From a phage, in NCBI GenBank assembly GCA_033178465.1, contig GCA_033178465.1_4726.1: DNA of 63,111 nt; one strand, 5' to 3'. Position numbers and translations under genes: made by a program. The notes under the pieces were generated by a model. That model made no database searches, was not told where the DNA came from, and saw nothing but the letters and a program-made list of their open reading frames with translations. This document shows, piece after piece, positions 1 through 15,439 of this stretch; the stretch's first letter is position 1; every line of letters starts with the position of its first letter.

Positions 1-48
1 GGTATGAATTAGGTTTCTTTCCTATCAACGATCATCTATGAGGTCAGC

Positions 49-879
49 ATGTATCCTGAAGCATCATGGCAGGAGGAAGTGTTATCTAAAATAAACGCCT
101 ATCTCCAGCATCCGTTGTCCCTGTCGGACGTTACGTTAACGCCAGCCTGGTATGGTGCGTCGGGTCGGTTACGCCTATCTATAGCCCCCGCACCACAATC
201 GGTTTACTACGTCGAAGACCCCGTACAGGTTTATCTTCAACGTCGAGACATTAATAAGCTCTTTATCAAACACCAACCTTTTATTGTCGTTGCTGATAAG
301 ACGACGATAGCAGACTGCTTAACACAGCTGTTTAAGAAGTATGGGTTGAAGATCGATTTAACGATCTTTGATTCTTCAGCGTTAGCGTCACAGGTTAAAT
401 TTGAAAGCGGCGAGAAAACCATATCTGTTCCCGTTCGTTCTGACGCATCGGCATCGTGGTACGGTACGTTTCAATTCCTCGCACGAAAAGATGTAAGTAC
501 CGATATTAGCGAACTGTTTACGGTACGAGAACCGCTAACCTCGTATTATCCAGAAGATAGTAAACAAGGGGATTTCCACACATTCAGTACATACGGCATC
601 AAGCTAAATTTACCGCCGCAAGATGCGATACGTTCGATGTCGGTTGGAGATACTCCAGAAGGATACAACGCATTCCGTTTAGCCTCATCGCTGATTTCAA
701 TGAGTTATACCTTAGCTTGGGAACTCATCACAACAGCCAACGTCGTTTATAATGGAAAAGTTGCCGATGCGAACGATTTAGATGTTCCAATACTTCCGTC
801 GTTCGGAAGCTCTGTTCTGGTATTAAAACCTCATTCCGATAGCGACGTCAGCAGCAAACTTTATTTTAGTTACGATTAA
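49..879 (+). CDS. hypothetical protein; N-terminal ~150-aa module paralogous to 4696-5223 and to N-terminus of 11277-13889 (putative fibre adaptor/attachment module)
   Basis: 276-aa ORF, ATG with GAGG 7 nt upstream; N-terminal residues share conserved pattern (…RRDI.K.F…YG..….DF…) with two other proteins in window; immediately upstream (13 nt) of a 1198-aa protein. Confidence 0.6.
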   Translation: MYPEASWQEEVLSKINAYLQHPLSLSDVTLTPAWYGASGRLRLSIAPAPQSVYYVEDPVQVYLQRRDINKLFIKHQPFIVVADKTTIADCLTQLFKKYGLKIDLTIFDSSALASQVKFESGEKTISVPVRSDASASWYGTFQFLARKDVSTDISELFTVREPLTSYYPEDSKQGDFHTFSTYGIKLNLPPQDAIRSMSVGDTPEGYNAFRLASSLISMSYTLAWELITTANVVYNGKVADANDLDVPILPSFGSSVLVLKPHSDSDVSSKLYFSYD

Positions 880-892
880 GGTGGAGTAAATA

Positions 893-3800
893 ATGGCGAC
901 ATTCTTACCTGACGATAAGCAGGATCTGGTTGACCAACTCAATGTACTAAATAAAACAAATATCCCGGCTGATGGTATCGCAGTCACTGCTGTTGGCGAT
1001 AGTCAAAAACTTGACGGTGTTGGAAATTACACAGGGACGGTTACGGTTAATAAACCAAAACGGTCATTCGCGACACTGTTTCCGTTCGGTGCGATCATGA
1101 AAAAAGAAACCGGTAACGAGGATGTTACTGGCCGCGCTGCACTCGCGTTATTGAACGAGCAGTTCCATCTGACGATTGCAGAAAGTTATTTCACAGAAGA
1201 ATCTTTAAATGCAACATACCAGTTAGGGACATGGAACAGCATCTCCGCACAAATCGCTTTAGAACCAACCAAGGATAACCCTTACTGGAAAGATACGTTG
1301 TTCATCTCAATGTATCGGTCAACGCTAGGTGCTTTGGAGGCATCTGATGCAAGCGCATCATCGAGTATTTATGTTGATTTAGGATCGGCTAGAAAAGCGT
1401 TCAATCTGAATCGTACCGGCGTATACAAGTTACCTTTACCAACAACGTCCAGTAGTGTACCGGACCGTTATGAATGGTGTCAGTTATTAGAAATTACACC
1501 ATCGGTTGTTGGCGGGCAGATTGACTGGAGCAACTACTTAACGCTGGAGCCGTTAACGCCGACGTTCCCAGTGATGGAAATCGATACAACCTATTACTTC
1601 CTGCTTTGGACATTTAACCGTAAAGATTGGTACGTGAAACAAATCACCGCATCGGAGCGTTATAACGATGTTGCTCAACTTATTGGTAAATGGGTGCTTA
1701 CAGCGTCGCCGGTTAATTTCGTTGGTTATGGTCATGCAAGATTCTTAACCCGAAACACAGGAACGTTTACCGATCCAGAAACCGATCATTACGTGTTAAA
1801 TGAAAGCGGGGTAATGGTAAACAACCGTCATTTCATTGCAGCAACACGACAAGAAGCGCAACCGGATGGTGACGCAACAACAGAAGGACAGTCGTTGTTA
1901 ATTCTGGGTGCGGGTATATTCAGTCATACAACGGATGACACCAAGCTTAAAGCGCATTATCTCACATTAGCAGAGGCATCGTTCGATGCGTATATAAAAG
2001 CGTTCTACGCAGGCCTTGAACCACCGGATACACCGACACGCTGGATCGCTAACTGGATCGTTAATGGTAAGCAACCGGTGTTGGCTCATTATCCTCTTGC
2101 AAAAGACGATTACCCAACACACGGGGGTTTCCATGACACAGCGGTTACATTCACCAGCGGTATCGGGAAAATAACACACGGTGCACCCACGTTCGGGGAA
2201 TACATGGATCTTGTTGTTCAGGTCTATGAGGGTAAACTCGGCTGGCAGAATTTGAACGCCGATGTGTTCAAAACCAATGATGAGGGGACGATTGACTGGG
2301 ATACAAAGGGTACAGTGTTCCCTATCGAGAAAGTTGCGTTACGCACAAAACGATACGTAAGTGCGGACGGGGACGATCTTGAAGCGTGTACTGACGATGA
2401 GGTAGGTACCATCGTACTCAAAGATAAATCCGTCAGCGGTTCTTATTTGGTTGCGTGGGCACCCCGCGTTCCTGTTGAATATGGCGGATACCTCATCAAA
2501 ACGAACGAGTGTCAGCATAACCGACCGATCCAGGTGCCGGTCACCAGAGACTACATGGGAAACGCGTCAGACGCTGAACAGTGGTTTTGTGAAGCAGCCT
2601 ACACCTTATATCGTTTAACGCAGCAGGAGCGTTATCAGAAAGCGTACAAGGCATCTTTGTTTACGATTGAAGAATATACCCGTATTGACGCTAACGATAA
2701 GTTCTTCCGTCAAGTAAAAGGAACCGATCGTTACGACACCGACGGTATCGCTTACACGTATACCTATCCATCGAAAGCACCGTTCACAATCACACGCGAT
2801 ACTGATGGCTGGATCGTGATTCAAGCATCTTCAGCACAAATTTACCTTGAACAGCAGGCCATTCCGTTCCGCGTCAATCGTGATTCAATTCTTCGGGTAA
2901 CCTGCGGCGGTAAAGATACAGCAGGTGTTGCAATTCCGGTTGAGATCTCATTATCGCTTTCTTTGGACAAAACCGAAGCGAAAGCCAAAACGTACAAGCT
3001 GGTATTACCTTCCAGCGCTGAACCGAAAGGATGGGATTTCAAAATAGGCTCATTGATTCCTGCTGATGCGGTTGATGAAGCTTCAACGCCAACCGGTGAT
3101 GCTGTTACAGGTTCTGTGTTGATATCGGCTGATAAAGTCGGCTGGAAAGACGATGTCGCCATCACAACAGAATTCAGCGAAGCGGTGGAAGATTCCTGGG
3201 ATGGGTTGTTCTTAAAAGCGCAGCTTACTGCGGCAGGCGGGCAATTTGAATTCAACCCAACCGCAAAACAGATCGTAAGACAGGTCAGTTATTTCGCGTC
3301 GATTGACTACAACGTTCGTGTAGAAGATGCAAATGGTTGGCGATGGTGGTATATGCTACCGGCCACCACAGCAAGAAATACATTGACGCTTTCGGCGAAC
3401 GGATGGACGCTTTCAGGGTATCAACCGGGCCACGCTGATACTGACCCTAGACCTTCTGCACCTGTGTGGGGCGATGGCTCAACTGAAATTCTGTTCTTGC
3501 CTGACGACAGCGATATCGCTGAAGGGGTATTTAAGCTCTACGCCATCAACAATCCGCCGTCAACTTACACCACGGATGACGGATACACCATGTTGTTTAC
3601 GTTAAAAGCAATCTTTGAGGCAGAGGGCACATTGCGTGTTGGCGATTGCACGATTGTCAACCAACGTCTGGATCCATTGCCTTATACTCCGGGTATTATT
3701 CCGTTCTCTAACAACTATATCCCTAACGCACCGACGTTCGACAGCTGGCGTGGTCAGCCTTATCCCGGCTACCAACATCCATGGGTCTTCCTGGATATGG

Positions 3801-4489
3801 ACGTATCGGCTGAACGACGTGACCTCATGATTCAGAATGTTGTGAATTTCTGGTATGACTCACAGCAGTGGTACTATCAGAAATTCGGTGTTTTAGGGCC
3901 AGGGGCAAGTGCGTACGTGTGGGATCGTTGGGATGCGCCAAGCGGATCAAAAGTTAATGATTTTACGATGTACCACTTCGGCGATCAGACAGCATGGTCT
4001 GGTTATCAGCCGAGGGCTTTCTTTTCAGCGGTGCGGCTTTATGCTGGACTGCTTGATCGTGGTTTAGCCGTCCCTGAGAAATTAACCACTTACATCAGTC
4101 ATTGGATTGATTTCTTGTTTACGTATCAACAGGAAAACGCTTATCAATCTCCTACGGATTTTCCGATGGATAAACCCCCTGCTTTTATCCCTAATGACTT
4201 TACTGGTCACATGGCAGGATTATGGTTGGCTGGTGCGTCGTTAGCAATGTTGTACGGACATCCCAACGATAAAGGCTATTCTGTTGCTGTTAATGCGTAT
4301 AACGAAATCGTTGAGAACTACATCAACCGCTACACCGTTGATGACGTAATGAACGGTGGGTGGAGTCCCGCACCAGATAGCGCTAATCTCGGCAGAGACG
4401 GAATGTATTTTGGTTTCTGGAGTGGGGAGATCCTCCGAGGATTAGGCTATTATATTGCCTTATTACGTGATGTAAAACCGACAATTTAA
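893..4489 (+). CDS. large putative virion protein, possibly tail fibre/tailspike-like receptor-binding protein (function inferred from context only)
   Basis: 1198-aa ORF, ATG with AAGGTGGAG RBS; follows the small adaptor-module gene exactly as fibre gene 5230-9198 follows 4696-5223; Trp/Tyr/Gly-rich; no motif recognised. Confidence 0.5.
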   Translation: MATFLPDDKQDLVDQLNVLNKTNIPADGIAVTAVGDSQKLDGVGNYTGTVTVNKPKRSFATLFPFGAIMKKETGNEDVTGRAALALLNEQFHLTIAESYFTEESLNATYQLGTWNSISAQIALEPTKDNPYWKDTLFISMYRSTLGALEASDASASSSIYVDLGSARKAFNLNRTGVYKLPLPTTSSSVPDRYEWCQLLEITPSVVGGQIDWSNYLTLEPLTPTFPVMEIDTTYYFLLWTFNRKDWYVKQITASERYNDVAQLIGKWVLTASPVNFVGYGHARFLTRNTGTFTDPETDHYVLNESGVMVNNRHFIAATRQEAQPDGDATTEGQSLLILGAGIFSHTTDDTKLKAHYLTLAEASFDAYIKAFYAGLEPPDTPTRWIANWIVNGKQPVLAHYPLAKDDYPTHGGFHDTAVTFTSGIGKITHGAPTFGEYMDLVVQVYEGKLGWQNLNADVFKTNDEGTIDWDTKGTVFPIEKVALRTKRYVSADGDDLEACTDDEVGTIVLKDKSVSGSYLVAWAPRVPVEYGGYLIKTNECQHNRPIQVPVTRDYMGNASDAEQWFCEAAYTLYRLTQQERYQKAYKASLFTIEEYTRIDANDKFFRQVKGTDRYDTDGIAYTYTYPSKAPFTITRDTDGWIVIQASSAQIYLEQQAIPFRVNRDSILRVTCGGKDTAGVAIPVEISLSLSLDKTEAKAKTYKLVLPSSAEPKGWDFKIGSLIPADAVDEASTPTGDAVTGSVLISADKVGWKDDVAITTEFSEAVEDSWDGLFLKAQLTAAGGQFEFNPTAKQIVRQVSYFASIDYNVRVEDANGWRWWYMLPATTARNTLTLSANGWTLSGYQPGHADTDPRPSAPVWGDGSTEILFLPDDSDIAEGVFKLYAINNPPSTYTTDDGYTMLFTLKAIFEAEGTLRVGDCTIVNQRLDPLPYTPGIIPFSNNYIPNAPTFDSWRGQPYPGYQHPWVFLDMDVSAERRDLMIQNVVNFWYDSQQWYYQKFGVLGPGASAYVWDRWDAPSGSKVNDFTMYHFGDQTAWSGYQPRAFFSAVRLYAGLLDRGLAVPEKLTTYISHWIDFLFTYQQENAYQSPTDFPMDKPPAFIPNDFTGHMAGLWLAGASLAMLYGHPNDKGYSVAVNAYNEIVENYINRYTVDDVMNGGWSPAPDSANLGRDGMYFGFWSGEILRGLGYYIALLRDVKPTI

Positions 4490-4492
4490 CCG

Positions 4493-4513
4493 ATGGGGCG
4501 GTAACCGCCCCAT
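4493..4513 (+). terminator. GC-rich hairpin after 893-4489 (second hairpin at 4548-4582 followed by AATATG)
   Basis: ATGGGGCGG-TAA-CCGCCCCAT inverted repeat directly after stop codon. Confidence 0.5.
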
Positions 4514-4695
4514 GAACTTTGGAGTGCAGTAGCGTAACCGTATTATCCTCCCCTCTATCTCGCTTTGTCGGGGTAGAGGGGCAATATGCGCGGAATTTTA
4601 TGCGGTCGTCTGGACTGTTTACGTTTACCTCGAATCACACTCTGGTTTCGAGGAGTTATATATTTTAATTTGATTGTTGGAGGAGGGTTGCGCTT

Positions 4696-5223
4696 ATGCG
4701 TTCACTTTACCCGCCATGGAAAGACGAACTGATTACGTTGATAAACCAACGTAACGGTAGCGTGTTCAGCAGCTCCGATCTTACATTAACCTTGGATGGG
4801 AGTTCTGGTGCTAACAGGGCAAAAGTGATCGTCACAGCAAATGAAGGAACAAGGTGGTGTGGTGAAAGTTTTATCACTTACACACGACGTGATATCGCGA
4901 AAGCGTTTCTAGGGATACCGATGAAAATCGTTTTGGAGTCGGTTGAAACAACAACTATAAGAGCGGTTATTCAAGCTATTTCAGATCAGTACGGATTCAT
5001 CTTTGAAACCGATGCTGATTTTGATTCAGCTATCCTTGCTACTGTCATTGATTTTCGTGACGACACATCCAAGAAGATCTCGATTCCCATCGCGAATACC
5101 TCCATGGTTTGGCGTGGGCAATTGGATCTTATCGTGACAAACCAGCGTGATACATCACCAGCGTATCTTTGCGCCGGTGCGGCAACTGTCATCGGTGATG
5201 TCATCACTATTTACCCGGGATAA
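4696..5223 (+). CDS. small protein consisting of the shared ~150-aa N-terminal module (putative tail-fibre adaptor/chaperone)
   Basis: 175-aa ORF; GGAGGAGGG RBS; paralogous to 49-879 and N-term of 11277-13889 (e.g. RRDIAKAFLGIPMKIV vs KRDLAKAFLGIPVKII); stop 6 nt before fibre gene start. Confidence 0.65.
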   Translation: MRSLYPPWKDELITLINQRNGSVFSSSDLTLTLDGSSGANRAKVIVTANEGTRWCGESFITYTRRDIAKAFLGIPMKIVLESVETTTIRAVIQAISDQYGFIFETDADFDSAILATVIDFRDDTSKKISIPIANTSMVWRGQLDLIVTNQRDTSPAYLCAGAATVIGDVITIYPG

Positions 5224-5229
5224 AACGCC

Positions 5230-8200
5230 ATGAGTACAACTTATAAAACGGTCATTACCGATAAAGGCGCTGAACGTATTGCCGCAGCGCTACTTCCTGA
5301 CGGTGAGAAACTAAGAATCACACATTTTGCTGTTGGTGACGGAAACGGCTCTACACCAACCCCGACCGCCAGCCAAACAGCGCTCGTACACGAAGTTTAT
5401 CGTGGGGGAGTTTCTAACATCCACATTGATGTTGACGACACAACTCGGATTGTTGTTGAAGGCATTATTCCCACCAGTCAAGGTGGGTTCTGGGTGCGTG
5501 AGATCGGTCTGTACGACGATCAGGGTGAACTTGTCGTTGTCGGCAATGCGCCAGAAGGGTACAAACCACTGCCTTCCGAAGGGGCAGGACGTGTGTTAAA
5601 TTGTCAGGTATTTGTTGTCGTAAGCAATACCGATGCGATCGAATTGAAGGTTGTTAGTGACGCATTCTTACCAGACGCGACCACCGAGAAACGGGGATTA
5701 ACGATCCTTAGCAGCGAAACAAATAGTGACGACGAAACCAAAGCCGCAACATCAAAAGCAGTTAAAGCTGTGATGGATGTTGCGAAAGGAAAGTACACGG
5801 CTGTGGACGCTAGTACCACTCGTAAAGGGTTGGTTCAGTTAACCTCGGCGACGAACAGTGATAGTGAAGTACTCGCACTATCCGCGAAAGCCGGGAAAGT
5901 CCTAGCAACACAAATTAGCGCTAAAGCGGATCTTTCTAGTCCGGCATTTACCGATAAGCCGACAACACCAACCGCAGCCGAAGGCGATAAAAGTCAGCAG
6001 ATTGCGAATACCGAATTTGTGATGCGTGCTATCGCATCGCTGGTCGACTCGTCTCCAGAAGCGCTAAATACGCTTAATGAGCTGGCTCAAGCTTTAGGGA
6101 ACGATCCTAATTTCGCAACGACAGTAACCAATGCGTTGGCAGGTAAACAGCCGTTGAACGCGTTGCTGACAGCGTGGTCTAACCTAACAACAGATGCGAA
6201 TAAACTCCCTTATTTTACTGGACGGAACCAAATCGGACTAACTAACGTAACGTCAATAGGTCTGAATCTGCTAAGCAAAGGAAGCGTTGATGCGGTCTTA
6301 CTGTATCTTGGATTGACAGAAACCATAAAGGCAGCTAAGACAGCATTGCAGGCTGGGAATAACGGTAGTGATATCGTAGATAAAACCGCGTTTGCTAAAA
6401 CGATCGGGTTATCGCCAGAGACGTACCTGAAATATAACGGCGATATGGCGATAGATGCGGACCTTAATACCTTCGGTCCAGTCGAAGCGTCTATGGGTAT
6501 TTGGTCGAAAGGCACATCTACAAACGCAACGTTTGCGAAGAACTTCCCGGAAGAAAACGCAGTCGGTTATTTAGAAGTTTTTAGAGCGGGTAACTACGGC
6601 GGAAGTCAACGTTTCACTGTACGTAACGGTAACATCTATACACGTCATCTTACTGCTTCATGGAATGGGACAAACGGTCCTTGGTCAGAATGGCGTAATG
6701 TTGCCGGTTCCGCCAGAACGTTGAACGAACAAAATAATCTGAATGACTTAGGCGGTGAACCCGCATTGGGTGTTTGGAGAAACAGTACAAGTACGTTAGC
6801 AACAGCTGCGCTGAATTATCCTGAGGAAGGTTCCTTTGCCCAGGGTGTATTAGAGGTCCTCAAAGGTGGTAACTACAGTTACACACAACGCTACACTACT
6901 CGTAGAGGTAATGTGTACGTTCGTTGTCTACAAGCCACGTGGGATGCTTCAAACCCGCAATGGGAGGAATGGCGCTGCGTCGGCTGTCAATCTGTCAGCG
7001 CATATTTCGAAGGCGATCTCGACACGTTAACTTCACCTAACCGTTATAGCATTACCGACAAAGCGACAAACGTTCCTTTAATCGACGGCACTAAAATTAT
7101 CGGTATCTTGGACGTCAGTCGTCGTTTTGATAACATTAGCATCGAACAAAAATTCACCTCGTTTGGTTCTGGTAGTAAAACCACAGGTCGCGTTTTCACT
7201 CGTGTATTCTCCGGCCAATCGAACGGTAAATGGAGTGACTGGCGAGAGGTTTTCACATCGTATTCACTTCCGTTGGTTTTGGGTATCGGTGGGGCCGCAG
7301 CTAAAGTCGATTCGTTGGACTGGCAGACCTACGACTTTATTCCCGGCCAGATGTTAACGACGCCTTTGAACACCATGCAGAACATTCCGTCCGATATGGA
7401 TTGGGGTGTGATCGACGGTAACCTAGTCAACATCCTTGTCGGGCCGTCTGATGACACCGGTACCGGTCGGAGTATGTTGGTTTGGCGTAGCACGGTGTCT
7501 ACCGCGAATTATCGGTTCTTTGCTGTTCGTATCGCTGGCACCGCCGGTAATCGTACGATTACGACGCGTCAGATGCCTGTGCTTAACGCTGCTCATACCT
7601 GGGCAGAAAAACAGACATTCAATAAAGGCTTAGCTGGTGATTTAACGGGTAATGCCACTACAGCAACCAAGCTACAAACCGCCCGTAAAATCGGCGGTGT
7701 CGCGTTCGATGGCACAGCTGATATCGCGTTACCTGGCGTCAATGCAGCTGGTAATCAGAATACAACCGGTAACGCAGCAACCGCCACGAAATTGAAAACC
7801 GCTGTTACGATCGGTGGTGTGAGTTTCGATGGTTCGGCCAGTATCAGTCTACCGGGTGTTAACGCAGCGGGAAATCAAAGCACCAGCGGAAACGCAGGAA
7901 GCGCAACCAAACTTCAGACCGCGAGAACCATCGGGGGTGTTTCTTTTGATGGTACTGCGAACATTGATTTACCAGGCGTAAATAAAGCAGGTACGCAAAG
8001 CACATCAGGGAACGCTGCAACAGCGACAAAACTCCAGACAGCCAGAAAGATCAACGGTGTTGCTTTTGATGGTACGAAAGATATCAGCTTCACGATTAGC
8101 GCGATCGCATCACGAGGTCGTGTAACCGCATTAGCGAATGCTGTTCAAGGTACCAGTACCGGTGTCCAGATGTACGAAGCGTACAACAACGGATACCCAA

Positions 8201-9198
8201 CAGCGTACGGTAACGTTATGCATCTTAAAGGGGCCAGTGCCAGCGGTGAAGGTGAGATCCTTATTGGATGGTCTGGGACATCAGGGGCGCACGCGCCAGC
8301 GTATCTTCGTTCTCGTCGGGATGCGGCGGATGCGAACTGGTCGGAATGGGCACAGATCTACACCTCGAAAGATAGTATCCCTGGTGTGAACGCAACCGGA
8401 AACCAGAACACGACGGGTAACGCCGCTTCAGCGACAAGGCTTCAAACGGCAAGAACGATAGGTGGGGTATCATTCAACGGTACAGCAAACATCAACTTAC
8501 CTGGTGTTAATACCACAGGTAACCAAGATACCACAGGAAATGCGGCGACAGCGACCAAATTAAAGACAGCCCGGACAATAGGCGGAGTGTCTTTTGACGG
8601 CAGCGCTAATATTAACCTACCTGGCGTTAACACCGCTGGTAATCAGAATACTTCAGGAAACGCTGCAACAGCAACGAAGTTGCGGACTGCGCGTACAATC
8701 AACGGGAAAGCGTTCGATGGTTCGGCGAATATCACGTTAACTGCGGCGGATTTGTCTACGTATACGAAGTCAGAAATCGATACGAAATTAGGATATAAAG
8801 CATCCAGTAGTGATATCCCTAACATGGCGATTAAAACATCCACGCTTTCATCTGGTAGTATGAACATGTCGTTTAGTGACTTCATCAACTATCTGAAAGG
8901 TGAAGGCGCATTCAGGAAACGTTATTGGATCGGATTTGGTGATATGATGGGCGCGAACGCTGGGAGTACAGGAACAATCACCGGGTTCGGTGCTCTCCAG
9001 CTCGCTGGTACGATCATTGAAGTATTCAACTTCCCTAACGGGATGGATTATACGATACGTATTACTACGCAACATAAAGCAGATTATAGCGGTTTGACAA
9101 ATATGATTGTAGTGTATCATTATCGGAGCGCATTGTCGCCTGCCGGTCAATGGTTGAAGTTCGCTGGTGCGACAGGAGCGACAAACGAAGGGTATTAA
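5230..9198 (+). CDS. tail fibre protein (lambda Stf / P2 gpH-type N-terminal domain plus tandem fibre repeats)
   Basis: 1322-aa ORF; N-terminus (…ITHFAVGDGNG…ASQTALVHEVYRG…VEGIIP…GGFWVREIGLYDDQGELVVVGN.PE.YKP) matches the conserved N-terminal domain of P2 gpH/lambda Stf-like fibres from memory; two blocks of ~40-aa repeats (GNxxTATKLxTARxIGGVxFDGxAxIxLPGVN). Confidence 0.85.
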   Translation: MSTTYKTVITDKGAERIAAALLPDGEKLRITHFAVGDGNGSTPTPTASQTALVHEVYRGGVSNIHIDVDDTTRIVVEGIIPTSQGGFWVREIGLYDDQGELVVVGNAPEGYKPLPSEGAGRVLNCQVFVVVSNTDAIELKVVSDAFLPDATTEKRGLTILSSETNSDDETKAATSKAVKAVMDVAKGKYTAVDASTTRKGLVQLTSATNSDSEVLALSAKAGKVLATQISAKADLSSPAFTDKPTTPTAAEGDKSQQIANTEFVMRAIASLVDSSPEALNTLNELAQALGNDPNFATTVTNALAGKQPLNALLTAWSNLTTDANKLPYFTGRNQIGLTNVTSIGLNLLSKGSVDAVLLYLGLTETIKAAKTALQAGNNGSDIVDKTAFAKTIGLSPETYLKYNGDMAIDADLNTFGPVEASMGIWSKGTSTNATFAKNFPEENAVGYLEVFRAGNYGGSQRFTVRNGNIYTRHLTASWNGTNGPWSEWRNVAGSARTLNEQNNLNDLGGEPALGVWRNSTSTLATAALNYPEEGSFAQGVLEVLKGGNYSYTQRYTTRRGNVYVRCLQATWDASNPQWEEWRCVGCQSVSAYFEGDLDTLTSPNRYSITDKATNVPLIDGTKIIGILDVSRRFDNISIEQKFTSFGSGSKTTGRVFTRVFSGQSNGKWSDWREVFTSYSLPLVLGIGGAAAKVDSLDWQTYDFIPGQMLTTPLNTMQNIPSDMDWGVIDGNLVNILVGPSDDTGTGRSMLVWRSTVSTANYRFFAVRIAGTAGNRTITTRQMPVLNAAHTWAEKQTFNKGLAGDLTGNATTATKLQTARKIGGVAFDGTADIALPGVNAAGNQNTTGNAATATKLKTAVTIGGVSFDGSASISLPGVNAAGNQSTSGNAGSATKLQTARTIGGVSFDGTANIDLPGVNKAGTQSTSGNAATATKLQTARKINGVAFDGTKDISFTISAIASRGRVTALANAVQGTSTGVQMYEAYNNGYPTAYGNVMHLKGASASGEGEILIGWSGTSGAHAPAYLRSRRDAADANWSEWAQIYTSKDSIPGVNATGNQNTTGNAASATRLQTARTIGGVSFNGTANINLPGVNTTGNQDTTGNAATATKLKTARTIGGVSFDGSANINLPGVNTAGNQNTSGNAATATKLRTARTINGKAFDGSANITLTAADLSTYTKSEIDTKLGYKASSSDIPNMAIKTSTLSSGSMNMSFSDFINYLKGEGAFRKRYWIGFGDMMGANAGSTGTITGFGALQLAGTIIEVFNFPNGMDYTIRITTQHKADYSGLTNMIVVYHYRSALSPAGQWLKFAGATGATNEGY
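7648..8100 (+). repeat. tandem ~120-bp (40-aa) tail-fibre repeats, ~4 copies, inside fibre gene
   Basis: Protein repeats GNATTATKLQTARKIGGVAFDGTADIALPGVNAAGNQNTT / GNAATATKLKTAVTIGGVSFDGSASISLPGVNAAGNQSTS / … read directly from translation. Confidence 0.8.
8416..8740 (+). repeat. second block of ~3 tandem 40-aa tail-fibre repeats inside fibre gene
   Basis: GNAASATRLQTARTIGGVSFNGTANINLPGVNTTGNQDTT / GNAATATKLKTARTIGGVSFDGSANINLPGVNTAGNQNTS / GNAATATKLRTARTINGKAFDGSANITL. Confidence 0.8.
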
Positions 9199-9252
9199 TA
9201 TCTTGCGATTATCCTTATGGAAGTCACTTCCGTTAACACACAAGGAAATCTA

Positions 9253-9759
9253 ATGATGAAAAAACTCTGCGCGATCGTTCTTGGTATGTTGATGGTGCTT
9301 TCTCTGGGTGGGTGCGCTACGCTGGAAGGCTTACCGAACCTGGATAAAGACCTGACACAACTGGTGGGGTTAAAACCTGTTGAGAAGAACAGCAATCTCG
9401 CTGTGTATTCCTGCTGGGGAGCAACCCAGGAATTCGAACATTGGAAACCGAAGTTTTCAACCACGGAAATCTGGAACGATAAGGTTCTGGTTGTGGATGA
9501 AGGTAGTCAGTTTACCGTCGACTCTCCGGTAACCGTTTTCGAGTCCACACAGTTGTACACCACGGTGAAAGACTACGTTGATCTGGGGTTCAATACCGCA
9601 ACCAGCGAACGCTTCTACCGTATGAATAAACCAACCCTGTCTTACGCAAGTTCAACCCTGAACTCGAACGGTGATGGTGTTGGTATGGTCTTCTTCAATT
9701 GTTCTACCGATCGTGCGCTGATCGCCGACCCGGATTCCGTTGAGGTTATCAGTAAGTAA
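9253..9759 (+). CDS. putative lipoprotein (signal peptide with lipobox LGGC); candidate receptor-masking/superinfection-exclusion protein
   Basis: ATG at 9253 with AAGGA RBS; N-terminus MMKKLCAIVLGMLMVLSLGGC = basic n-region, hydrophobic core, Cys after LGG; located directly downstream of tail fibre gene. Confidence 0.65.
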   Translation: MMKKLCAIVLGMLMVLSLGGCATLEGLPNLDKDLTQLVGLKPVEKNSNLAVYSCWGATQEFEHWKPKFSTTEIWNDKVLVVDEGSQFTVDSPVTVFESTQLYTTVKDYVDLGFNTATSERFYRMNKPTLSYASSTLNSNGDGVGMVFFNCSTDRALIADPDSVEVISK

Positions 9760-9768
9760 TTAAGTATG

Positions 9769-9796
9769 CTCCTCCAACCCGTAAGGGAAGGAGGAG
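9769..9796 (+). terminator. conserved palindromic hairpin element (family A), followed by CTATGG
   Basis: CTCCTCCAACCC-GTAA-GGGAAGGAGGAG between lipoprotein gene and 9853 gene. Confidence 0.55.
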
Positions 9797-9852
9797 CTGC
9801 TATGGCGTCATCGTATGAAATTTCCTTTTTGAGAATAGAAACGAGGTAGAAA

Positions 9853-10509
9853 ATGGCAATAGCGCGAACTATAGGGTTCACGTCTAGAAGGCACGCTGAC
9901 GGCAAATTAGGGTGGCGTGATCCCGGCTGGAGAGTGGCCTATAATAACAGCATTGTCGCCCATCTTTTTGACTTGCGTTCTTTTGCGCGAGAAGTCGTCG
10001 CTAGACACCCAAACGCGTACTTAGAATATGTCTCTGGGCATGGCGATGCTGAAGAAATTCAACACGGACAATGGAATAACGGGGTATACGTACCAAATAT
10101 ACCTCTCCAAGGATGGAGTGGCGATGTCGCCGCGTACGACTATAAACTATTCTGGAACGCGTCAGCTAACGGCTCAATGGGTAATATTGACTGTGATAGC
10201 CGTAAGCATACATGGAAACCATGGTCGGCGGGTAATCTCTCGGCACCTATTAGAATGTCCGACTTACAATCACATCCGTTCTTTGTTATTATTGAATTTA
10301 AGTATCGATCAACAACGCACTACGTTAAGCTTGGTTCGTTCCAGATAGAATCGTTCAATATATACGAAATGGTACCAGGTTTTCCGGGATGGGTAGGTAA
10401 CGTGATGAGTCAAAACGGTAGGGCAGTGCCTGGCTGGGCTTCGCAGCTTGTTTCAGGGAACTGGTTGACGTCGTTTGTTGGTGGTAAGCGATATCTAAAT
10501 TCAATTTAA
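9853..10509 (+). CDS. hypothetical protein, paralogue of 10612-11253 (putative fibre accessory protein)
   Basis: 218-aa ORF; C-terminal 45 aa nearly identical to neighbour (PGFPGWVGNVMSQNGRAVPGWASQLVSGNWLTSFVGGKRY) while N-termini diverge. Confidence 0.7.
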   Translation: MAIARTIGFTSRRHADGKLGWRDPGWRVAYNNSIVAHLFDLRSFAREVVARHPNAYLEYVSGHGDAEEIQHGQWNNGVYVPNIPLQGWSGDVAAYDYKLFWNASANGSMGNIDCDSRKHTWKPWSAGNLSAPIRMSDLQSHPFFVIIEFKYRSTTHYVKLGSFQIESFNIYEMVPGFPGWVGNVMSQNGRAVPGWASQLVSGNWLTSFVGGKRYLNSI

Positions 10510-10611
10510 GAGAAGCTACTGTTTTATCAGTGGGTGTTTATGTATGTATTACCTGACGACAACACGCATCCGATATCCGCCACCTCAACCACCAACGTAT
10601 AGGACAACACC

Positions 10612-11253
10612 ATGGCTATAAGCACAGATAAAACACCGAATAGCGGCGCACGCTTACAAGATGGTAACGCATGGCACGATAACACCGACGCTTACTACAA
10701 CACCATGATCTGCTGGACGTTCGACGTTCGTGATATTGCGACACAAGTCCAGAACAATTATCCTGGTACCAAATACCTGGAATCGATAAACGGATATGTG
10801 AACGCAAAAGAAAAGAAACACGGACAAGGTACCAACCCTGTTATCATTCCGAATATTCCACCACAGCAATTTACCTCACTTAAGAACATGAGTCCGTCGC
10901 TATGGTGGAACGCGGGCGGACGCGGTAGCAACGGTAACGTTAACTGTGACTCGCGCAGTCATACCTGGCAGCCGTGGAACGCGAATGCGAACTGGTCAGC
11001 CGTCCCTGTGACCGAATTGTTATCGTCTCCTTTACCCGTTGCGTTTGTCTTTAAAGCGGTTTCTGGTAAACATAACGTTGCGGTATGGAACTGTCATCTC
11101 TACAATTTAACTTTCTATTACATCCGTCCCGGATTCCCTGGTTGGTGTGGTAACATCATGAGCCAGAATGGTAGAGCCGTTCCAGGCTGGGTATCACAAC
11201 TCGTCAGCGGGAACTGGTTAACTTCCTTCGTGGGCGGTAAGCAGTACATCTAA
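10612..11253 (+). CDS. hypothetical protein, paralogue of 9853-10509 (putative fibre accessory protein)
   Basis: 213-aa ORF; C-terminus PGFPGWCGNIMSQNGRAVPGWVSQLVSGNWLTSFVGGKQY; shared central motif N.DCDSR.HTW.PW. Confidence 0.7.
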   Translation: MAISTDKTPNSGARLQDGNAWHDNTDAYYNTMICWTFDVRDIATQVQNNYPGTKYLESINGYVNAKEKKHGQGTNPVIIPNIPPQQFTSLKNMSPSLWWNAGGRGSNGNVNCDSRSHTWQPWNANANWSAVPVTELLSSPLPVAFVFKAVSGKHNVAVWNCHLYNLTFYYIRPGFPGWCGNIMSQNGRAVPGWVSQLVSGNWLTSFVGGKQYI

Positions 11254-11276
11254 TTCTAAAGGGCTGAGGTTTTTTA

Positions 11277-13889
11277 ATGAAGTTACATGAAACCGCGCAA
11301 AATGAAATACTAAGATTGGTCAACGAGAAAAACGGACTTTCTCTTACTTCCGACGATGTTGTATTTGCACGTGTTCTATCGGCACCCGAAACAACCTCCA
11401 TTCTTTTTAAAGGGAAAGATGGAAGCCGATACTACAAATCCGTATTCGTCTCGTTGGTTAAACGAGACCTCGCTAAAGCGTTCTTGGGAATACCTGTCAA
11501 GATTATCATTGAAGAAGATACCCAGTTACGTGAAATCATGCAAGCGGTCGCTGACCGTTACGGTATCGCCTTTGACCTCGCAACCGACTTCCTACAAGGA
11601 CAATTAAATAAAACGACAACAACGTCTACCACAGGCCGACAATCCGTTAAAGTAACAGCGGATGAGGGAAGTTTGGTTTGGGCAGGCGATCTTGTACTAA
11701 CTGTTGAAAACCGTAAATACAACCTGTTGTCGCTTATTCAGCATCTTGACCTTACCGGACTGAAATATCTTAACGACGATAGAACGAAGGGTGATGTCGA
11801 GTTATTGATTGCTGGCATCGACCCCGATCGCTTTGTAGGTCTTGCAAACCTACAACAGGGTGAGGCCATTTACCCCGCCTTAGCCCACCGCATCGCGGAT
11901 GCGATTCGTCGAGAAAACGCACCTGAAGATATCGGTTTACCCGCGCTGCGTGGGTTATTTGAAAACGCAACAGTCACGAAGGTGGAACGTACGGACCTCG
12001 GTGATGCGTACAGTGTCCCGATTAATACGAACGACCATTATCAAGGTACTGCCGTATTCCATCTCAATAACGGCAACCCCAAAGGCGCACCAACCTACCG
12101 CTACGCAAAAGGTACGCGTAACCTCTGGCAACCGATGTATTGGATTATCAACGGTCAGTCAACAGAGAACTTCGCGGTTGTCAGTGAAGACATGGTACTT
12201 AATGCGTATATGCGATGCCATACCGCTAACGGGTTGGTCGGGATAGAATGGCGGACAACGGATACGCTGGATCACGGTTGTATTGCGTATGATCCCATGA
12301 CGTCGTTATTCGGTTTGATCTTTAAAGCGAAGATCACGTTTACTGGCGATCAGCGTAACTTTGCAGATACCGAAAACCCGCCGGTTTTAACCGTCGTACA
12401 CAAAGACGATAGCCGTCAGTATATCTCATTAACCCGATATGCGACCGACGTCTCTGAAGACGGTACAAGCGCAATCGTGACGATCGATTTCAATGACGCA
12501 ATGGCGGGGTTCTATGCTGACGAACCCATCGAACTTGAATCGGTAACGTCGTTGATGTTCAGCATGAGTTCTCGACATTATAAGGAAGATGCGACTGAAA
12601 CGACATATCTGGAAACACCGATCGATCTTGGTTTAACCCTCGAGATTCTTCCTATCGATGGGGTGTATCAGGAAATGACGGTTAATCGCCATCATTGTAC
12701 ACCACACGAACTTCGTGCGATAACCGCTTATGATGACCATTACAACATCACACCAGAGCGTGTATTTGAGAACCTGGTTTATGCGGGATATCAAGATGAA
12801 TTAGTACACTATGTCGGAATGTCGCATTTCTACGATACTGTCTGGACGCCAAGTGCGGGTAAGTTACTGGTGAACACCACGGATGTATTAAATCCACCCT
12901 GTATCGCATGGCATGAAGCTTTCGCCGCATATGCTGCAAAACACCATTTCTCTGTCACCATCAGTTTAAGTTACGAATTGATGAGTACCGCATGCCCGTT
13001 CGAGTGGGCGCAGCAGGATTGGGAAGGAAACATTGCAGCAACCGGATATACGCCACCGTCTTGGTTGTTATCTCCATGTAACCAACAGGCGATGGCGTGG
13101 TTAGGGGATGTATTAACCGCGTTTGCCGATATCATCTACCCTCATGTCCAGGACATTTGTGTGCAAGTAGGTGAACCCTGGTGGTGGATCAATACGGCGA
13201 ACAACAAACCGTGTATCTACGATTACCAAACCAAACTGGCTTTCAATAACCGATATCCCAACAAATACGCCGCAGACATCGGTGATATTAACAACCCGTT
13301 ATCCGGTGGTGACTACGATCTCTACGTTGAGTTTTGTAACGAACAGTTAGGATACAGTTGCTGGAATTTGGTTAACCGGGTAAAATCGAAATACACGCAG
13401 ATCAAAACCGGCGTTCTTCCGTTCTTACCGACGATCATGTCGAATGCGTTCACGGAGAAACTCAATCTTCCCAAAGCGTGGTATAATCCAGAGAAATTCG
13501 ACCGGTTCTATTCGGAGTGCTATGACTGGATTATTGAAACGCATGTCACCAAGGCTGAGCAAGCGATCACCATTCCGCGAGATACGCTTGGTTTCCCGGT
13601 TAGTCAGATCCACTATTACCTGGGATTTGTTCCTGGTGAAGATCTTGCACCGCTTTATGGGTTCGATGTTAAAACGCCGTATAAACGCGAACTCTGGAAA
13701 CGTATCATGGGTAACCACGCAAATAACCTGGATATGTTCGAAGGGCTCACTCAGTATATCTGGGCGTATCCGCAGTTCATCGGCGATAGCATTATTCCCG
13801 GCCAGGTTCCCGAAGAGTTTTATTTCCTAGGAAAACGTTATGATATCATTCGTACGGACATTCCTTTTGATTTTACGCCGGACGCTTAA
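11277..13889 (+). CDS. large protein with N-terminal shared adaptor module fused to a ~720-aa C-terminal domain (putative receptor-binding/enzymatic tail protein)
   Basis: 870-aa ORF; first ~150 aa paralogous to 4696-5223 and 49-879; Trp/Tyr-rich C-terminal part, no motif recognised. Confidence 0.6.
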   Translation: MKLHETAQNEILRLVNEKNGLSLTSDDVVFARVLSAPETTSILFKGKDGSRYYKSVFVSLVKRDLAKAFLGIPVKIIIEEDTQLREIMQAVADRYGIAFDLATDFLQGQLNKTTTTSTTGRQSVKVTADEGSLVWAGDLVLTVENRKYNLLSLIQHLDLTGLKYLNDDRTKGDVELLIAGIDPDRFVGLANLQQGEAIYPALAHRIADAIRRENAPEDIGLPALRGLFENATVTKVERTDLGDAYSVPINTNDHYQGTAVFHLNNGNPKGAPTYRYAKGTRNLWQPMYWIINGQSTENFAVVSEDMVLNAYMRCHTANGLVGIEWRTTDTLDHGCIAYDPMTSLFGLIFKAKITFTGDQRNFADTENPPVLTVVHKDDSRQYISLTRYATDVSEDGTSAIVTIDFNDAMAGFYADEPIELESVTSLMFSMSSRHYKEDATETTYLETPIDLGLTLEILPIDGVYQEMTVNRHHCTPHELRAITAYDDHYNITPERVFENLVYAGYQDELVHYVGMSHFYDTVWTPSAGKLLVNTTDVLNPPCIAWHEAFAAYAAKHHFSVTISLSYELMSTACPFEWAQQDWEGNIAATGYTPPSWLLSPCNQQAMAWLGDVLTAFADIIYPHVQDICVQVGEPWWWINTANNKPCIYDYQTKLAFNNRYPNKYAADIGDINNPLSGGDYDLYVEFCNEQLGYSCWNLVNRVKSKYTQIKTGVLPFLPTIMSNAFTEKLNLPKAWYNPEKFDRFYSECYDWIIETHVTKAEQAITIPRDTLGFPVSQIHYYLGFVPGEDLAPLYGFDVKTPYKRELWKRIMGNHANNLDMFEGLTQYIWAYPQFIGDSIIPGQVPEEFYFLGKRYDIIRTDIPFDFTPDA

Positions 13890-13910
13890 CACGTTGGAGG
13901 TGGTGTCTAC

Positions 13911-14480
13911 ATGAAAGTAAAAGACCTTTACAAAATAAAACCGCAAACGATGGGTACCGCGAGCTTGGTTCTCGTTGACGGGCGCTCCCTGGTTGATGCG
14001 CTTAATAGTTACGACAACATCAACATTCCTGTCGGTCAACGATTAAGCATACAGCGGTTAAAAAAGCATCTCGATGATGCTGGATTAGCTCCTGACACAC
14101 GAAAAGAAATCGAAGAATTGGAAATCGATGAAACGAGTTCAGTTGAAGGTAATCTTCCTGATCTTACCGCTATTCATGATAACGCGAATCAACCCGCTGT
14201 CCAAAACTTCGTTGTTGTCATTGCGACAATCTCGCTCTTTTTAGTGACGATAGTATACACCGGTATCTGGGCATGGCTTGCGTTCATCGCGCAAACCAAA
14301 CCGAGCATTAACCATTTGTTCGTTCTGGCAGCTTGCTGGACGATGGTGATCTGGAAATCACAGGGCATCATCAGTCGCGAACGTCGTGATTTGATGTCGG
14401 TTATCGTCGGCGATGCGCCAAGTAAAAATCGCTTTTGGGATAATATCGAAAGCCTGGGTAAAGTGATGAAGAATCGTTGA
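13911..14480 (+). CDS. small membrane protein with two predicted transmembrane helices
   Basis: 189-aa ORF, GGAGGTGG RBS; hydrophobic stretches VVVIATISLFLVTIVYTGIWAWLAFIA and LFVLAACWTMVIW. Confidence 0.6.
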   Translation: MKVKDLYKIKPQTMGTASLVLVDGRSLVDALNSYDNINIPVGQRLSIQRLKKHLDDAGLAPDTRKEIEELEIDETSSVEGNLPDLTAIHDNANQPAVQNFVVVIATISLFLVTIVYTGIWAWLAFIAQTKPSINHLFVLAACWTMVIWKSQGIISRERRDLMSVIVGDAPSKNRFWDNIESLGKVMKNR

Positions 14481-14489
14481 GGGTAACAC

Positions 14490-14864
14490 ATGGCTGATAC
14501 CACCCCACCATGGATCGATCTGAATGTGCATCTTGTCTGGCGTTACGCTGGACGCTACACCCACGCGCACGATTTTAATGACGGTAAACTTAGTTATTAC
14601 AGCATCGCTTTTACCGAAGCACAAATACGTGCATGGTTCGCTCAACTGAATTATCCCAATTTGATTGCGAAGAAAAGCTATTCAATGTCAAGAACACGAT
14701 TAACTGTGACATTGGAGCTGTTCAATAAATCAACATGGGTTGACGCGTACCGGCTTCGTGAGGTTATTGATAGGCAGTTCCGTAAGCATCGTCATGAAGT
14801 GCCATCAATGCCGAAGAAAGATCCTATTGTTCCACCGGAAGATGCCATCTGGAACGAACATTAA
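14490..14864 (+). CDS. hypothetical protein
   Basis: 124-aa ORF, GAGGG RBS; followed by palindromic hairpin 14882-14913. Confidence 0.6.
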   Translation: MADTTPPWIDLNVHLVWRYAGRYTHAHDFNDGKLSYYSIAFTEAQIRAWFAQLNYPNLIAKKSYSMSRTRLTVTLELFNKSTWVDAYRLREVIDRQFRKHRHEVPSMPKKDPIVPPEDAIWNEH

Positions 14865-14881
14865 TAGCATAACAGCATAAG

Positions 14882-14913
14882 CCCTCCTCCAACCCGTAAG
14901 GGAAGGAGGAGGG
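14882..14913. terminator. conserved palindromic hairpin element (family A) between convergent genes; TATG on both flanks
   Basis: CCCTCCTCCAACCCGTAAGGGAAGGAGGAGGG; + strand continues TTATG, complement of upstream flank reads CTTATG. Confidence 0.6.
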
Positions 14914-14929
14914 TTATGTTACCGTTGCA

Positions 14930-15439
14930 TTAGAACAAGTAGAAATGAACGTTTGGTACGGTGGCAAGATACTGTTTGATTTGTGCGCGTACCCATTGAG
15001 GCTGGATTGTTTCGGATTGTCCGTAACCGATATTACCGCAACCAGAACCGACCGGAGGAATTGCGACAATCAACGGTTCAGCTGGACGCTGGTATGAGAA
15101 GCCGTCTCTTTCGAACTGAAGCTCCAATAACCATGCTTTTAACGCCAGTAAACCGTTAACGATATACTCGCGTCGTGTTCTTTCACGCCAATCCGATTTT
15201 GATGGAAACAACACGTAGGTGAGCTGATCGTTCTCGCCATGCTGATATGACACGACTTCGCCCACCTTAAACCCATCTCGACATTGCTTACGGTACGCTT
15301 CAAGAAGACCGGGCACACGATCGGCTGCCTGCTTGGCAAGACCACGTCCCATCACACCGACGGTGTTGACAGGAATAACCCGAACGTCAGCCGGTGTTTC
15401 CCAAATATCCAATCCAATCAAACTGGTAAATCTCGCCAT
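14930..15439 (-). CDS. macrodomain protein (TARG1/DarG-like ADP-ribose-binding/hydrolase fold), candidate ADP-ribosylation-reversing anti-defence enzyme
   Basis: ATG at 15439 (track ORF starts further upstream but overlaps previous gene); motifs VIPVNTVGVMGRGLAKQ and AIPPVGSGCGNIGYG resemble TARG1 (…CRMGAGIAVLFK…MPRIGCGLDRL…) from memory; ~169 aa, typical macrodomain size. Confidence 0.6.
   Translation of the reverse strand: MARFTSLIGLDIWETPADVRVIPVNTVGVMGRGLAKQAADRVPGLLEAYRKQCRDGFKVGEVVSYQHGENDQLTYVLFPSKSDWRERTRREYIVNGLLALKAWLLELQFERDGFSYQRPAEPLIVAIPPVGSGCGNIGYGQSETIQPQWVRAQIKQYLATVPNVHFYLF

Follow-up and report, generated by a model that had tools for sequence, protein, structure and literature searches.

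We analysed 63,111 nucleotides (nt) of phage DNA (contig GCA_033178465.1_4726.1 of GenBank assembly GCA_033178465.1; the whole stretch is called the window) and found that four neighbouring tail genes between positions 49 and 13889 share the same N-terminal domain of ~150 residues, DUF7941. Their products, of 276, 1198, 175 and 870 amino acids (aa), probably form a plug-and-socket network on the peripheral baseplate that carries glycan-directed domains. Positions 1–8073 are 92.6% identical in nucleotide sequence to Escherichia phage vB_EcoM_Goslar, a jumbo phage that belongs to the nucleus-forming chimalliviruses. An earlier note on this DNA, made from the sequence alone, had proposed that three proteins share a paralogous N-terminal module of ~150 aa that docks receptor-binding proteins, found twice as a small gene ahead of a very large one and once as a fusion. 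The coordinates it gave for the five genes were exact, all five lie on the plus strand, and the small and large genes are indeed separated by only 13 nt (879 to 893) and 6 nt (5223 to 5230). The genes are listed below with their domains, including an N-terminal domain (NTD) and C-terminal domain (CTD) assigned from AlphaFold 2 (AF2) models, Pfam or a family hidden Markov model (HMM).

49–879, plus strand: 276-aa DUF7941 protein; Goslar gp93 ortholog, 98% identity; Pfam DUF7941, 35.8 bits
49–498 (residues 1–150), plus strand: NTD of the 276-aa protein (AF2 model)
526–603 (residues 160–185), plus strand: disordered linker of the 276-aa protein (AF2 model)
616–876 (residues 190–276), plus strand: CTD of the 276-aa protein (AF2 model)
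893–4489, plus strand: 1198-aa tail protein; Goslar gp92 ortholog, 98% identity
896–1312 (residues 2–140), plus strand: divergent DUF7941 NTD of the 1198-aa protein (family HMM)
1319–1474 (residues 143–194), plus strand: disordered linker of the 1198-aa protein (AF2 model)
1730–4486 (residues 280–1198), plus strand: large body of the 1198-aa protein, with beta-sandwiches resembling carbohydrate-binding modules (CBMs) and an (alpha/alpha)6 barrel (AF2 and Foldseek)
4696–5223, plus strand: 175-aa protein; Goslar gp91 ortholog, 86% identity; Pfam DUF7941, 58.5 bits
4696–5151 (residues 1–152), plus strand: DUF7941 NTD of the 175-aa protein, followed by a short C-terminal tail (Pfam)
5230–9198, plus strand: 1322-aa tail fibre of the P1 gpS / P2 gpH type; Goslar gp90 ortholog with a different tip; no module
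11277–13889, plus strand: 870-aa fusion protein; Goslar gp86 ortholog, 99% identity
11280–12107 (residues 2–277), plus strand: full DUF7941 module of the 870-aa protein (Pfam, E = 1.1e-44)
12129–12626 (residues 285–450), plus strand: NCTSP_N domain of the 870-aa protein (Pfam, E = 1.1e-10)
12702–13787 (residues 476–837), plus strand: N4-sheath-type TIM barrel of the 870-aa protein (Pfam TIM-barrel_NCTSP, E = 3.4e-85)

Four copies of the DUF7941 module

The relationship between the 276-, 175- and 870-aa proteins was evident from pairwise BLASTP. With compositional adjustment, the 175-aa and 870-aa proteins aligned at E = 6e-24 (31% identity over 143 aa) and the 276-aa and 175-aa proteins at E = 3e-11 (28% identity over 148 aa), and the 276-aa and 870-aa proteins gave a match of 46 aa only (E = 1e-3). 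All three exceeded the gathering cut-off of 27 bits for the Pfam family DUF7941 (PF25613), the 870-aa protein with 153.4 bits, and they also matched PHROGs labelled 'virion structural protein'. The proposed paralogy of the three proteins was thus borne out. The size given for the module holds for the NTD and falls short for the module as a whole, which in the 276-aa and 870-aa proteins is an NTD–linker–CTD unit of ~276 aa: the 276-aa protein and residues 1–277 of the 870-aa protein align to the entire family profile of 273–276 positions. Correspondingly, the C-terminal part of the 870-aa protein, put at 720 aa in the earlier note, is actually ~590 aa. In the 175-aa protein the Pfam match spans only profile positions 7–153, leaving an NTD and a tail of ~23–25 aa. 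The AF2 model of the 276-aa protein (predicted local distance difference test, pLDDT, 83.6) has an NTD with pLDDT above 90 and a linker below 50. The NTD–linker–CTD arrangement, or its NTD-plus-linker form, was seen in the 276-aa protein by structure prediction, in the 870-aa protein by the full profile and in the 175-aa protein as NTD plus tail.

The 1198-aa protein adds a fourth copy to the three that had been noticed. A family HMM was built from 172 module instances, which came from an exhaustive HMMER search of 1.84 billion representative proteins; searched against all 468 open reading frames (ORFs) of the window, it matched residues 2–140 of the 1198-aa protein to profile positions 1–144 (E = 5.4e-9), with the runner-up ORF at E = 0.41. 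A second profile, from which the 1198-aa protein had been left out, gave E = 1.5e-9 for the same N-terminus. An HMM made from the three window modules was too narrow and missed this copy, so the 172-domain profile was needed; neither HMM detected an additional copy in the 63-kb window, and the tail fibre at 5230–9198 had no match to the module profile. In the AF2 model of the 1198-aa protein (pLDDT 81.6), residues 1–142 keep the helix and strand order of the NTD and are followed by disorder at 143–194. Homologs of the large body have a clearer N-terminal module (P0191, E = 3e-17; P0187, 2e-16; P0188, 4e-11; P0190, 6e-10), and P0190 and P0191 carry precomputed Pfam DUF7941 matches. A homolog search with the first 300 aa of the 1198-aa protein returned two fragments only and was useless for alignment. 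Judged by its profile matches, the 1198-aa protein is best regarded as a divergent DUF7941 member, and a preprint on the Goslar virion likewise counts gp92 as a DUF7941 protein (Basu et al. 2026, bioRxiv 10.64898/2026.04.21.720040). Because the 1198-aa protein has its own N-terminal module, the genes at 49–879 and 893–4489 are tandem paralogs and not, as had been suggested, a module split from its cargo.

The similarity of the copies could in principle reflect chance or composition, or the copies could be decaying duplicates without function. The weak BLASTP match between the 276-aa and 870-aa proteins would, by itself, suit the former, but the E-values of 6e-24 and 3e-11 were obtained under compositional adjustment and all three proteins lie above the Pfam threshold; with the family-HMM matches and the profile match to phiKZ gp127 described below, a chance or compositional origin is refuted. 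Decay is contradicted by intact orthologous ORFs in many Goslar-like contigs and by the detection of the Goslar orthologs among virion proteins. We therefore regard either explanation as having almost no chance of being right.

The module has the fold of a phiKZ baseplate protein

Structure prediction of the module alone, proposed as a check in the earlier note, gave a confident NTD that matches phiKZ gp127. In a Foldseek search of the PDB with the 276-aa model, the gp127 NTD (9xqd_0) was the sole fold match with E ≤ 1e-3 (E = 1.5e-6, probability 1.00, template modelling (TM) score normalised to the target 0.53, 147 columns). A profile of 45 family sequences reached the same protein over almost its full length (9xqd chain 0, PHIKZ127; E = 1.4e-24). 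The family profile was required for this, as phmmer with the single 276-aa or 1198-aa protein found nothing in the PDB. The module of the 276-aa protein and that of the 870-aa protein (Goslar gp86) matched each other best in structure, over 281 columns. The 276-aa model had 76 matches at E ≤ 1e-3 in BFVD, a library of viral structures, and all named ones were from phiKZ-like jumbo phages; tblastn found relatives in Serratia, Erwinia and Salmonella chimalliviruses.

The position of gp127 in the virion has been published. In the cryo-electron microscopy (cryo-EM) atlas of phiKZ, gp127 lies at the distal end of each spoke of the peripheral baseplate, where, in the outer peripheral baseplate, the gp139 band of each star lobe ends in one gp127 (Xiao et al. 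2026, PMC13250141). Orthologs of all four window proteins (gp93, gp92, gp91 and gp86) have been detected by mass spectrometry in purified Goslar virions (Basu et al. 2026). Homology to a located baseplate protein, together with the published virion proteomics of the orthologs and the N-terminal position of the module ahead of binding-type fusions, supports a shared attachment domain that mounts several host-recognition devices.

C-terminal parts of the large proteins

The 870-aa protein continues from its module into an NCTSP_N domain (41.5 bits) and a TIM-barrel_NCTSP domain (286.6 bits; Pfam cut-offs 27 for both), in the same order as in coliphage N4. Against the PDB it matched N4 Gp64 (9lc0_M, E = 4.5e-30) and the non-contractile sheath protein gp65 (9lc0_I, E = 5e-7). 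N4 gp65 is the receptor-binding protein of N4 (PMC13434306).

The 1198-aa protein belongs to PHROG 2871, 'tail protein' (E = 3e-295), and its residues 280–1198 are 37–48% identical to tail proteins of ~920–1000 aa over their full length. In Foldseek searches, parts of its AF2 model matched beta-sandwiches of CBM11 and CBM29 and the (alpha/alpha)6 barrels of the glycoside hydrolase (GH) families GH88 and GH105, all at probability 1.0; the barrel matches of both GH families had E ~2e-3 and target TM scores of 0.38–0.47. The fusion of module and tail-protein body is also annotated in a bacterial contig of 1.26 Mb, as a protein of 1512 aa in Scandinavium sp. H11S7 (P0188).

A beta-helix depolymerase fold was looked for in the large proteins with Pfam and Foldseek and was not found. 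The suggestion of at least three distinct host-recognition devices is plausible, since the CBM/GH-like 1198-aa protein, the P1 gpS-like fibre and the N4 gp64/gp65-like 870-aa protein could each act as one.

DUF7941 across chimalliviruses

The HMMER search returned 312 representative clusters at E ≤ 1e-3, with lengths from ~150 to more than 1500 aa. In 138 of 147 representatives, no more than 25 residues precede the module. Among the top 148, 45 are of NTD-plus-tail size (140–200 aa), 33 of full-module size (201–320 aa) and 55 longer than 450 aa. Domains fused to the module in long members include DUF285/leucine-rich repeat (LRR) domains (12), beta-propellers (3), Gp38 adhesin (2), LRR_5 (2), lectin-like, immunoglobulin-like and other domains, as well as the N4-sheath TIM barrel, and 14 family proteins have at least two module copies in one chain. 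A match to a sea-urchin mucin (P0104) was judged to be a spurious partial match to a repeat domain.

A short motif, [LIVMF]xG[LFIVM]x[YFLW], occurs 13–15 residues past the NTD in 44 of 124 members (35%), compared with 8% of background windows (p ~1e-17), and is frequently the extreme C-terminus of NTD-only proteins. It replaced a strict [YFW]P motif, whose enrichment was too low, and has the general form LxG[LF]x[YL]. In the 870-aa protein it reads LTGLKY (residues 159–164; positions 11751–11768). We consider it a candidate docking peptide, and the N-terminal position of the module, its fused binding domains, the tandem copies and this motif together fit a docking module with a linker peptide.

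Tandem expansion of DUF7941 is common in chimalliviruses. Erwinia phage Huxley has nine module genes in tandem within 11 kb (gp148–gp158; L005, positions 2608–13492), and Serratia phage PCH45 has four in 5.4 kb. Three further proteins (P0087, P0110 and P0277) have 6–8 tandem DUF7941 stretches and lipoprotein or membrane-anchor N-termini. Although the named BFVD and tblastn matches were all from phiKZ-like jumbo phages, one member of a DUF7941 cluster is annotated from a Mycoplasmataceae metagenome-assembled genome, and the domain has been reported in Spiroplasma Spaid-like proteins (2026 paper, PMC13375240). These two occurrences may qualify the exclusivity to chimalliviruses stated in the Goslar preprint and hint that phages are not the only carriers of the domain.

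A predicted docking network on the baseplate

The Goslar virion has been studied by cryo-EM and quantitative mass spectrometry (Basu et al. 2026). That work describes DUF7941 as a chimallivirus family with an NTD, a disordered linker and a CTD, and lists ten such proteins in Goslar (gp22, gp23, gp31, gp33, gp34, gp86, gp91, gp92, gp93 and gp161), of which gp86, gp92 and gp161 run on into carbohydrate-binding, glycoside-hydrolase or LRR domains. Head-to-tail docking was predicted, with the linker and CTD of one protein placed onto the next NTD; purified gp22 formed filaments in negative stain, a gp126–gp127 heterodimer was fitted into the phiKZ density, and a baseplate-anchored 'fibre cloud' was proposed for host recognition (Basu et al. 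2026). Average copy numbers per virion (Table S4 of the same preprint) were ~4.9 for gp92, ~4.8 for gp93, ~4.5 for gp86, ~1.2 for gp91 and ~43 for the fibre gp90, with ~2140 for gp23, a member that consists of NTD and linker only. The values for gp92, gp93 and gp86 fit roughly six copies per virion.

From these data and our own we propose that all four products are virion proteins present in few copies in a Goslar-like chimallivirus, and that their shared DUF7941 NTD would work as a plug-and-socket module for assembly on the peripheral baseplate. According to the published model, a globular NTD receives the linker of a second DUF7941 protein, either alone or together with its CTD; such docking would produce dimers or chains in head-to-tail order, held at the outer tips of the six baseplate spokes. 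Tandem modules within single polypeptides and the positionally conserved linker motif would support head-to-tail oligomerisation. In this way the module may attach different glycan-binding or glycan-cleaving domains to the virion. In the 870-aa protein this C-terminal part would be the TIM barrel of N4 gp64/gp65 type, and in the 1198-aa protein the CBM-like and (alpha/alpha)6 hydrolase-like domains. With no effector domain of their own, the 276-aa and 175-aa proteins would be connector or extender subunits. The four-copy paralogy, family membership, NTD–linker–CTD architecture, fold identity with gp127 and nature of the fused domains were observed here; the virion presence and copy numbers of the Goslar orthologs, the baseplate position of gp127 and the gp22 filaments are taken from the papers cited. 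We infer from both that the four proteins would join the baseplate network, which partners they would choose and that their C-terminal domains would recognise host surface glycans.

Several points weigh against this proposal. The 1198-aa protein had no Pfam DUF7941 match at E ≤ 0.01 and stayed below the gathering threshold, and its NTD is divergent, with pLDDT just 52–85 and E = 0.011 in a single-sequence hhalign comparison with the module alignment. Only the 870-aa protein of the four has the strict linker motif. Glycan binding or hydrolysis by the C-terminal parts is suggested by fold matches at E ~1e-3. In the Goslar baseplate map no density was seen for DUF7941 proteins, the chain model derives from AlphaFold predictions and negative stain of one paralog (gp22) in a preprint only, and the ~1.2 copies of gp91 were estimated from two peptides, which leaves its structural role uncertain (Basu et al. 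2026). Even so, we consider a DUF7941 plug-and-socket network the likely explanation for the four genes.

Does each small module gene serve its downstream neighbour?

The earlier note implied a more specific arrangement, in which every small module protein would, as a dedicated adaptor, dock the protein encoded next to it downstream (276-aa with 1198-aa, 175-aa with the fibre), the 870-aa protein being the same arrangement in fused form. The gaps of 13 and 6 nt suggest translational linkage. Of nine Goslar-like loci examined, eight have the small gene directly 5′ of the fibre (seven of eight when L008 and L009, which are near-identical, count as one), and this adjacency is kept in the window, Goslar, L002, L008, L009, L010 and L011 despite differing fibre tips; the C-terminal nonapeptide of the 175-aa protein is invariant even where the remainder falls to 48% identity. 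The two genes of the 276+1198 pair also occur, are missing or are substituted jointly across the loci examined, and the distantly related Salmonella phage SPLA10 has a counterpart in which genes for 257 aa and 1209 aa abut. In Goslar virions gp93 and gp92 were found at equimolar levels (4.8 and 4.9 copies; Basu et al. 2026), and phiKZ gp126 and gp127 are products of adjacent genes and a predicted heterodimer. However, the 1198-aa protein has its own NTD, which makes the first pair paralogs rather than module and cargo. The fibre, for its part, opens with PF12571, a canonical fibre N-terminal domain, and offers no DUF7941 element that could enter an NTD; gp91 and gp90 stand at ~1.2 to 43 copies per virion (~1:36), and one contig (L004, which may be a deletion variant or a misassembly) has the small gene but lacks a fibre gene. 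The small protein showed no evident co-variation with the N-terminus of the fibre, and the adjacency of the genes confounds this test. Dedicated adaptors for downstream genes are unproven, and for the fibre they are weakly contradicted; the arrangement as a whole seems doubtful to us. The details of fission, fusion and dedicated adaptors were only partly right. For the 276/1198 pair an adaptor would be a special case of the docking network, namely a specific heterodimer.

The 175-aa protein might instead be a non-structural assembly factor or chaperone for the downstream fibre, derived from the module and carried over into virions in traces. Its place directly upstream of the fibre, the ~1.2 copies of gp91 per Goslar virion from two peptides, and the absence from the window of the Caudo_TAP chaperone gene that follows the fibre in Goslar would all suit such a role. 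Yet it is a clear member of a structural family in which the NTD-plus-linker-only gp23 is abundant (~2140 copies), Goslar has both gp91 and Caudo_TAP, so that gp91 is no substitute for the chaperone, and label-free quantification of a small protein from two peptides is imprecise. We consider this role improbable. Within the docking network, gene order may encode assembly order, with the 276-aa and 1198-aa proteins as one pair and the 175-aa protein, via its ITIYPG tail, and the fibre or another partner as a second; such exchangeable 'connector + effector' cassettes could swap host-recognition devices, and the same module might have been taken up by Mollicutes for tandem-repeat surface proteins. 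This extension is speculative and we give it little weight; its points on gene-order cassettes and Mollicutes uptake are absent from the Goslar preprint.

Variation of the locus among Goslar-like phages

Upstream of the pair of small gene and fibre, the locus is, on the contigs compared, variable and cassette-like among the loci examined. In L010 (5147–6901) an extra gene for a 584-aa DUF7941+DUF285 protein accompanies the 276+1198 pair, in L008 and L009 (3635–6900) a 215-aa DUF7941 gene and a 255-aa gene replace it, and in L011 (3859–5956) the pair is absent. In L004 (IMGVR_UViG_3300045988_173921, 2224–4843), residues 1–81 of the 276-aa gene are joined to residues 732–1198 of the 1198-aa gene; this contig has no fibre gene, keeps the small module gene and a Caudo_TAP-like ORF, and has flanks 97–100% identical to the window. 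Either the deletion is natural or the assembly has collapsed here.

The 175-aa protein is closer to that of the IMG/VR contig L002 (98% identity) than to Goslar gp91 (86%). Compared with L001, L002, L004, L008, L010 and L011 it is mosaic: between some relatives residues 1–65 fall to 23–25% identity and residues 66–175 stay at ~85%, a pattern that suggests recombination inside the NTD. Its C-terminus, GD[VIT]ITIYPG (GDVITIYPG in the window), is invariant in all variants.

Fibre and other neighbouring genes

The fibre at 5230–9198 is of the P2 gpH / P1 gpS type (PF12571, E = 1.7e-43; PF03406, E = 4.3e-21), and Goslar gp90 is annotated as similar to P1 gpS. Its identity to Goslar and L002 is mosaic, and residues ~1176–1322 (positions 8760–9198) match L002 and have no match in gp90. 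The Caudo_TAP fibre-chaperone gene, gp89 in Goslar, is absent after the fibre in the window (9198–9853) and in L002, and the fibres of L008–L011 end in a Peptidase_S74 intramolecular chaperone. Fibre tip and chaperone thus appear to be exchanged together among Goslar-like phages.

The gene at 9217–9759 (probable start 9256) is the Goslar gp88 ortholog (97% identity); its product has a lipoprotein-type signal sequence, MKKLCAIVLGMLMVLSLGGC, and no Pfam match. Goslar gp88 is reported at ~737 copies per purified virion, for which co-purifying membrane material is one possibility. The genes at 9853–10509 and 10612–11253 encode tandem paralogs (47% identity, E = 3e-60) with a near-identical C-terminus, PGFPGW.GN.MSQNGRAVPGW.SQLVSGNWLTSFVGGK, and no Pfam or PHROG match. 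The second is the ortholog of Goslar gp87 (~19 copies per virion), and the first is absent from Goslar, L002 and L004. Directly 3′ of the 870-aa gene, 13911–14480 encodes a protein of 189 aa, in which a hydrophobic segment probably spans the membrane. The Goslar ortholog of this protein, gp85, was detected at ~4.6 copies per virion, a level like that of gp86, gp92 and gp93, and the protein could be a partner of the 870-aa protein.

A tandem-repeat scan at the DNA level found none. Chimallivirus promoters are not of the sigma-70 type, and a promoter and terminator scan of positions 1–15000 gave counts at or below the shuffle expectation and was uninformative on operon boundaries.

Significance

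Little is understood of how chimalliviruses, which are candidates for phage therapy, locate their hosts. If correct, a shared N-terminal docking module with interchangeable glycan-binding domains would explain host-range diversification and suggests an engineering handle. The literature and Pfam already cover the family and its architecture as well as these orthologs and the hypothesis on their function, and the idea has been proposed for Goslar; the window is therefore a natural variant rather than a new concept. Our analysis adds sequence-profile support for the gp92-type NTD, the cassette-like differences of the pairs between loci, copy numbers compatible with about six per virion for three proteins, the positional linker motif and the evidence for occurrence in Mollicutes.

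Comparison with known systems

The closest known system is Goslar, which has the orthologs gp93, gp92, gp91 and gp86 in the same gene order (98%, 98%, 86% and 99% protein identity) and with the same domain architectures. The window nevertheless represents a different Goslar-like phage: its fibre tip is exchanged, it lacks the Caudo_TAP gene after the fibre, and it has an extra gp87-like paralog at 9853–10509.

Both effector regions have relatives outside the jumbo phages. Residues 285–840 of the 870-aa protein are homologous to gp64/gp65 of coliphage N4 (PDB 9lc0, 9yf4), a podovirus whose tail tube these proteins surround as a six-fold sheath. In the window the domain instead sits on a DUF7941 module, in a contractile-tailed jumbo phage, and its Goslar ortholog is present at ~4.5 copies per virion. 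An N4-type sheath role is not expected because the phage is contractile-tailed with its own sheath, and because of the DUF7941 fusion and the low copy number; by context it is unlikely, and the 870-aa protein is a domain homolog rather than a functional equivalent of the N4 sheath. The PHROG 2871 tail proteins related to the 1198-aa protein are widespread in non-jumbo phages and prophages, for example Salmonella phages SD-1_S14 and SeKF_80 and Stenotrophomonas phage Philippe. Most are without the DUF7941 extension, which is found only in the jumbo-phage-type proteins P0187, P0188, P0190 and P0191.

In phiKZ, gp131–gp135 follow the same design logic, as paralogs with a common N-terminal part for virion attachment and different distal domains, and they too belong to the peripheral baseplate (PMC13250141). 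They are nevertheless an unrelated family, whose N-termini form hetero-hexameric helical bundles and in which no sequence relation to the window proteins was detected. phiKZ gp127, in contrast, is of the same family and has the same NTD fold as the window module, although it shares only ~20% sequence identity with the window proteins and is without an effector domain; like the window pairs, gp126 and gp127 are encoded by adjacent genes, and they are predicted to form a head-to-tail heterodimer.

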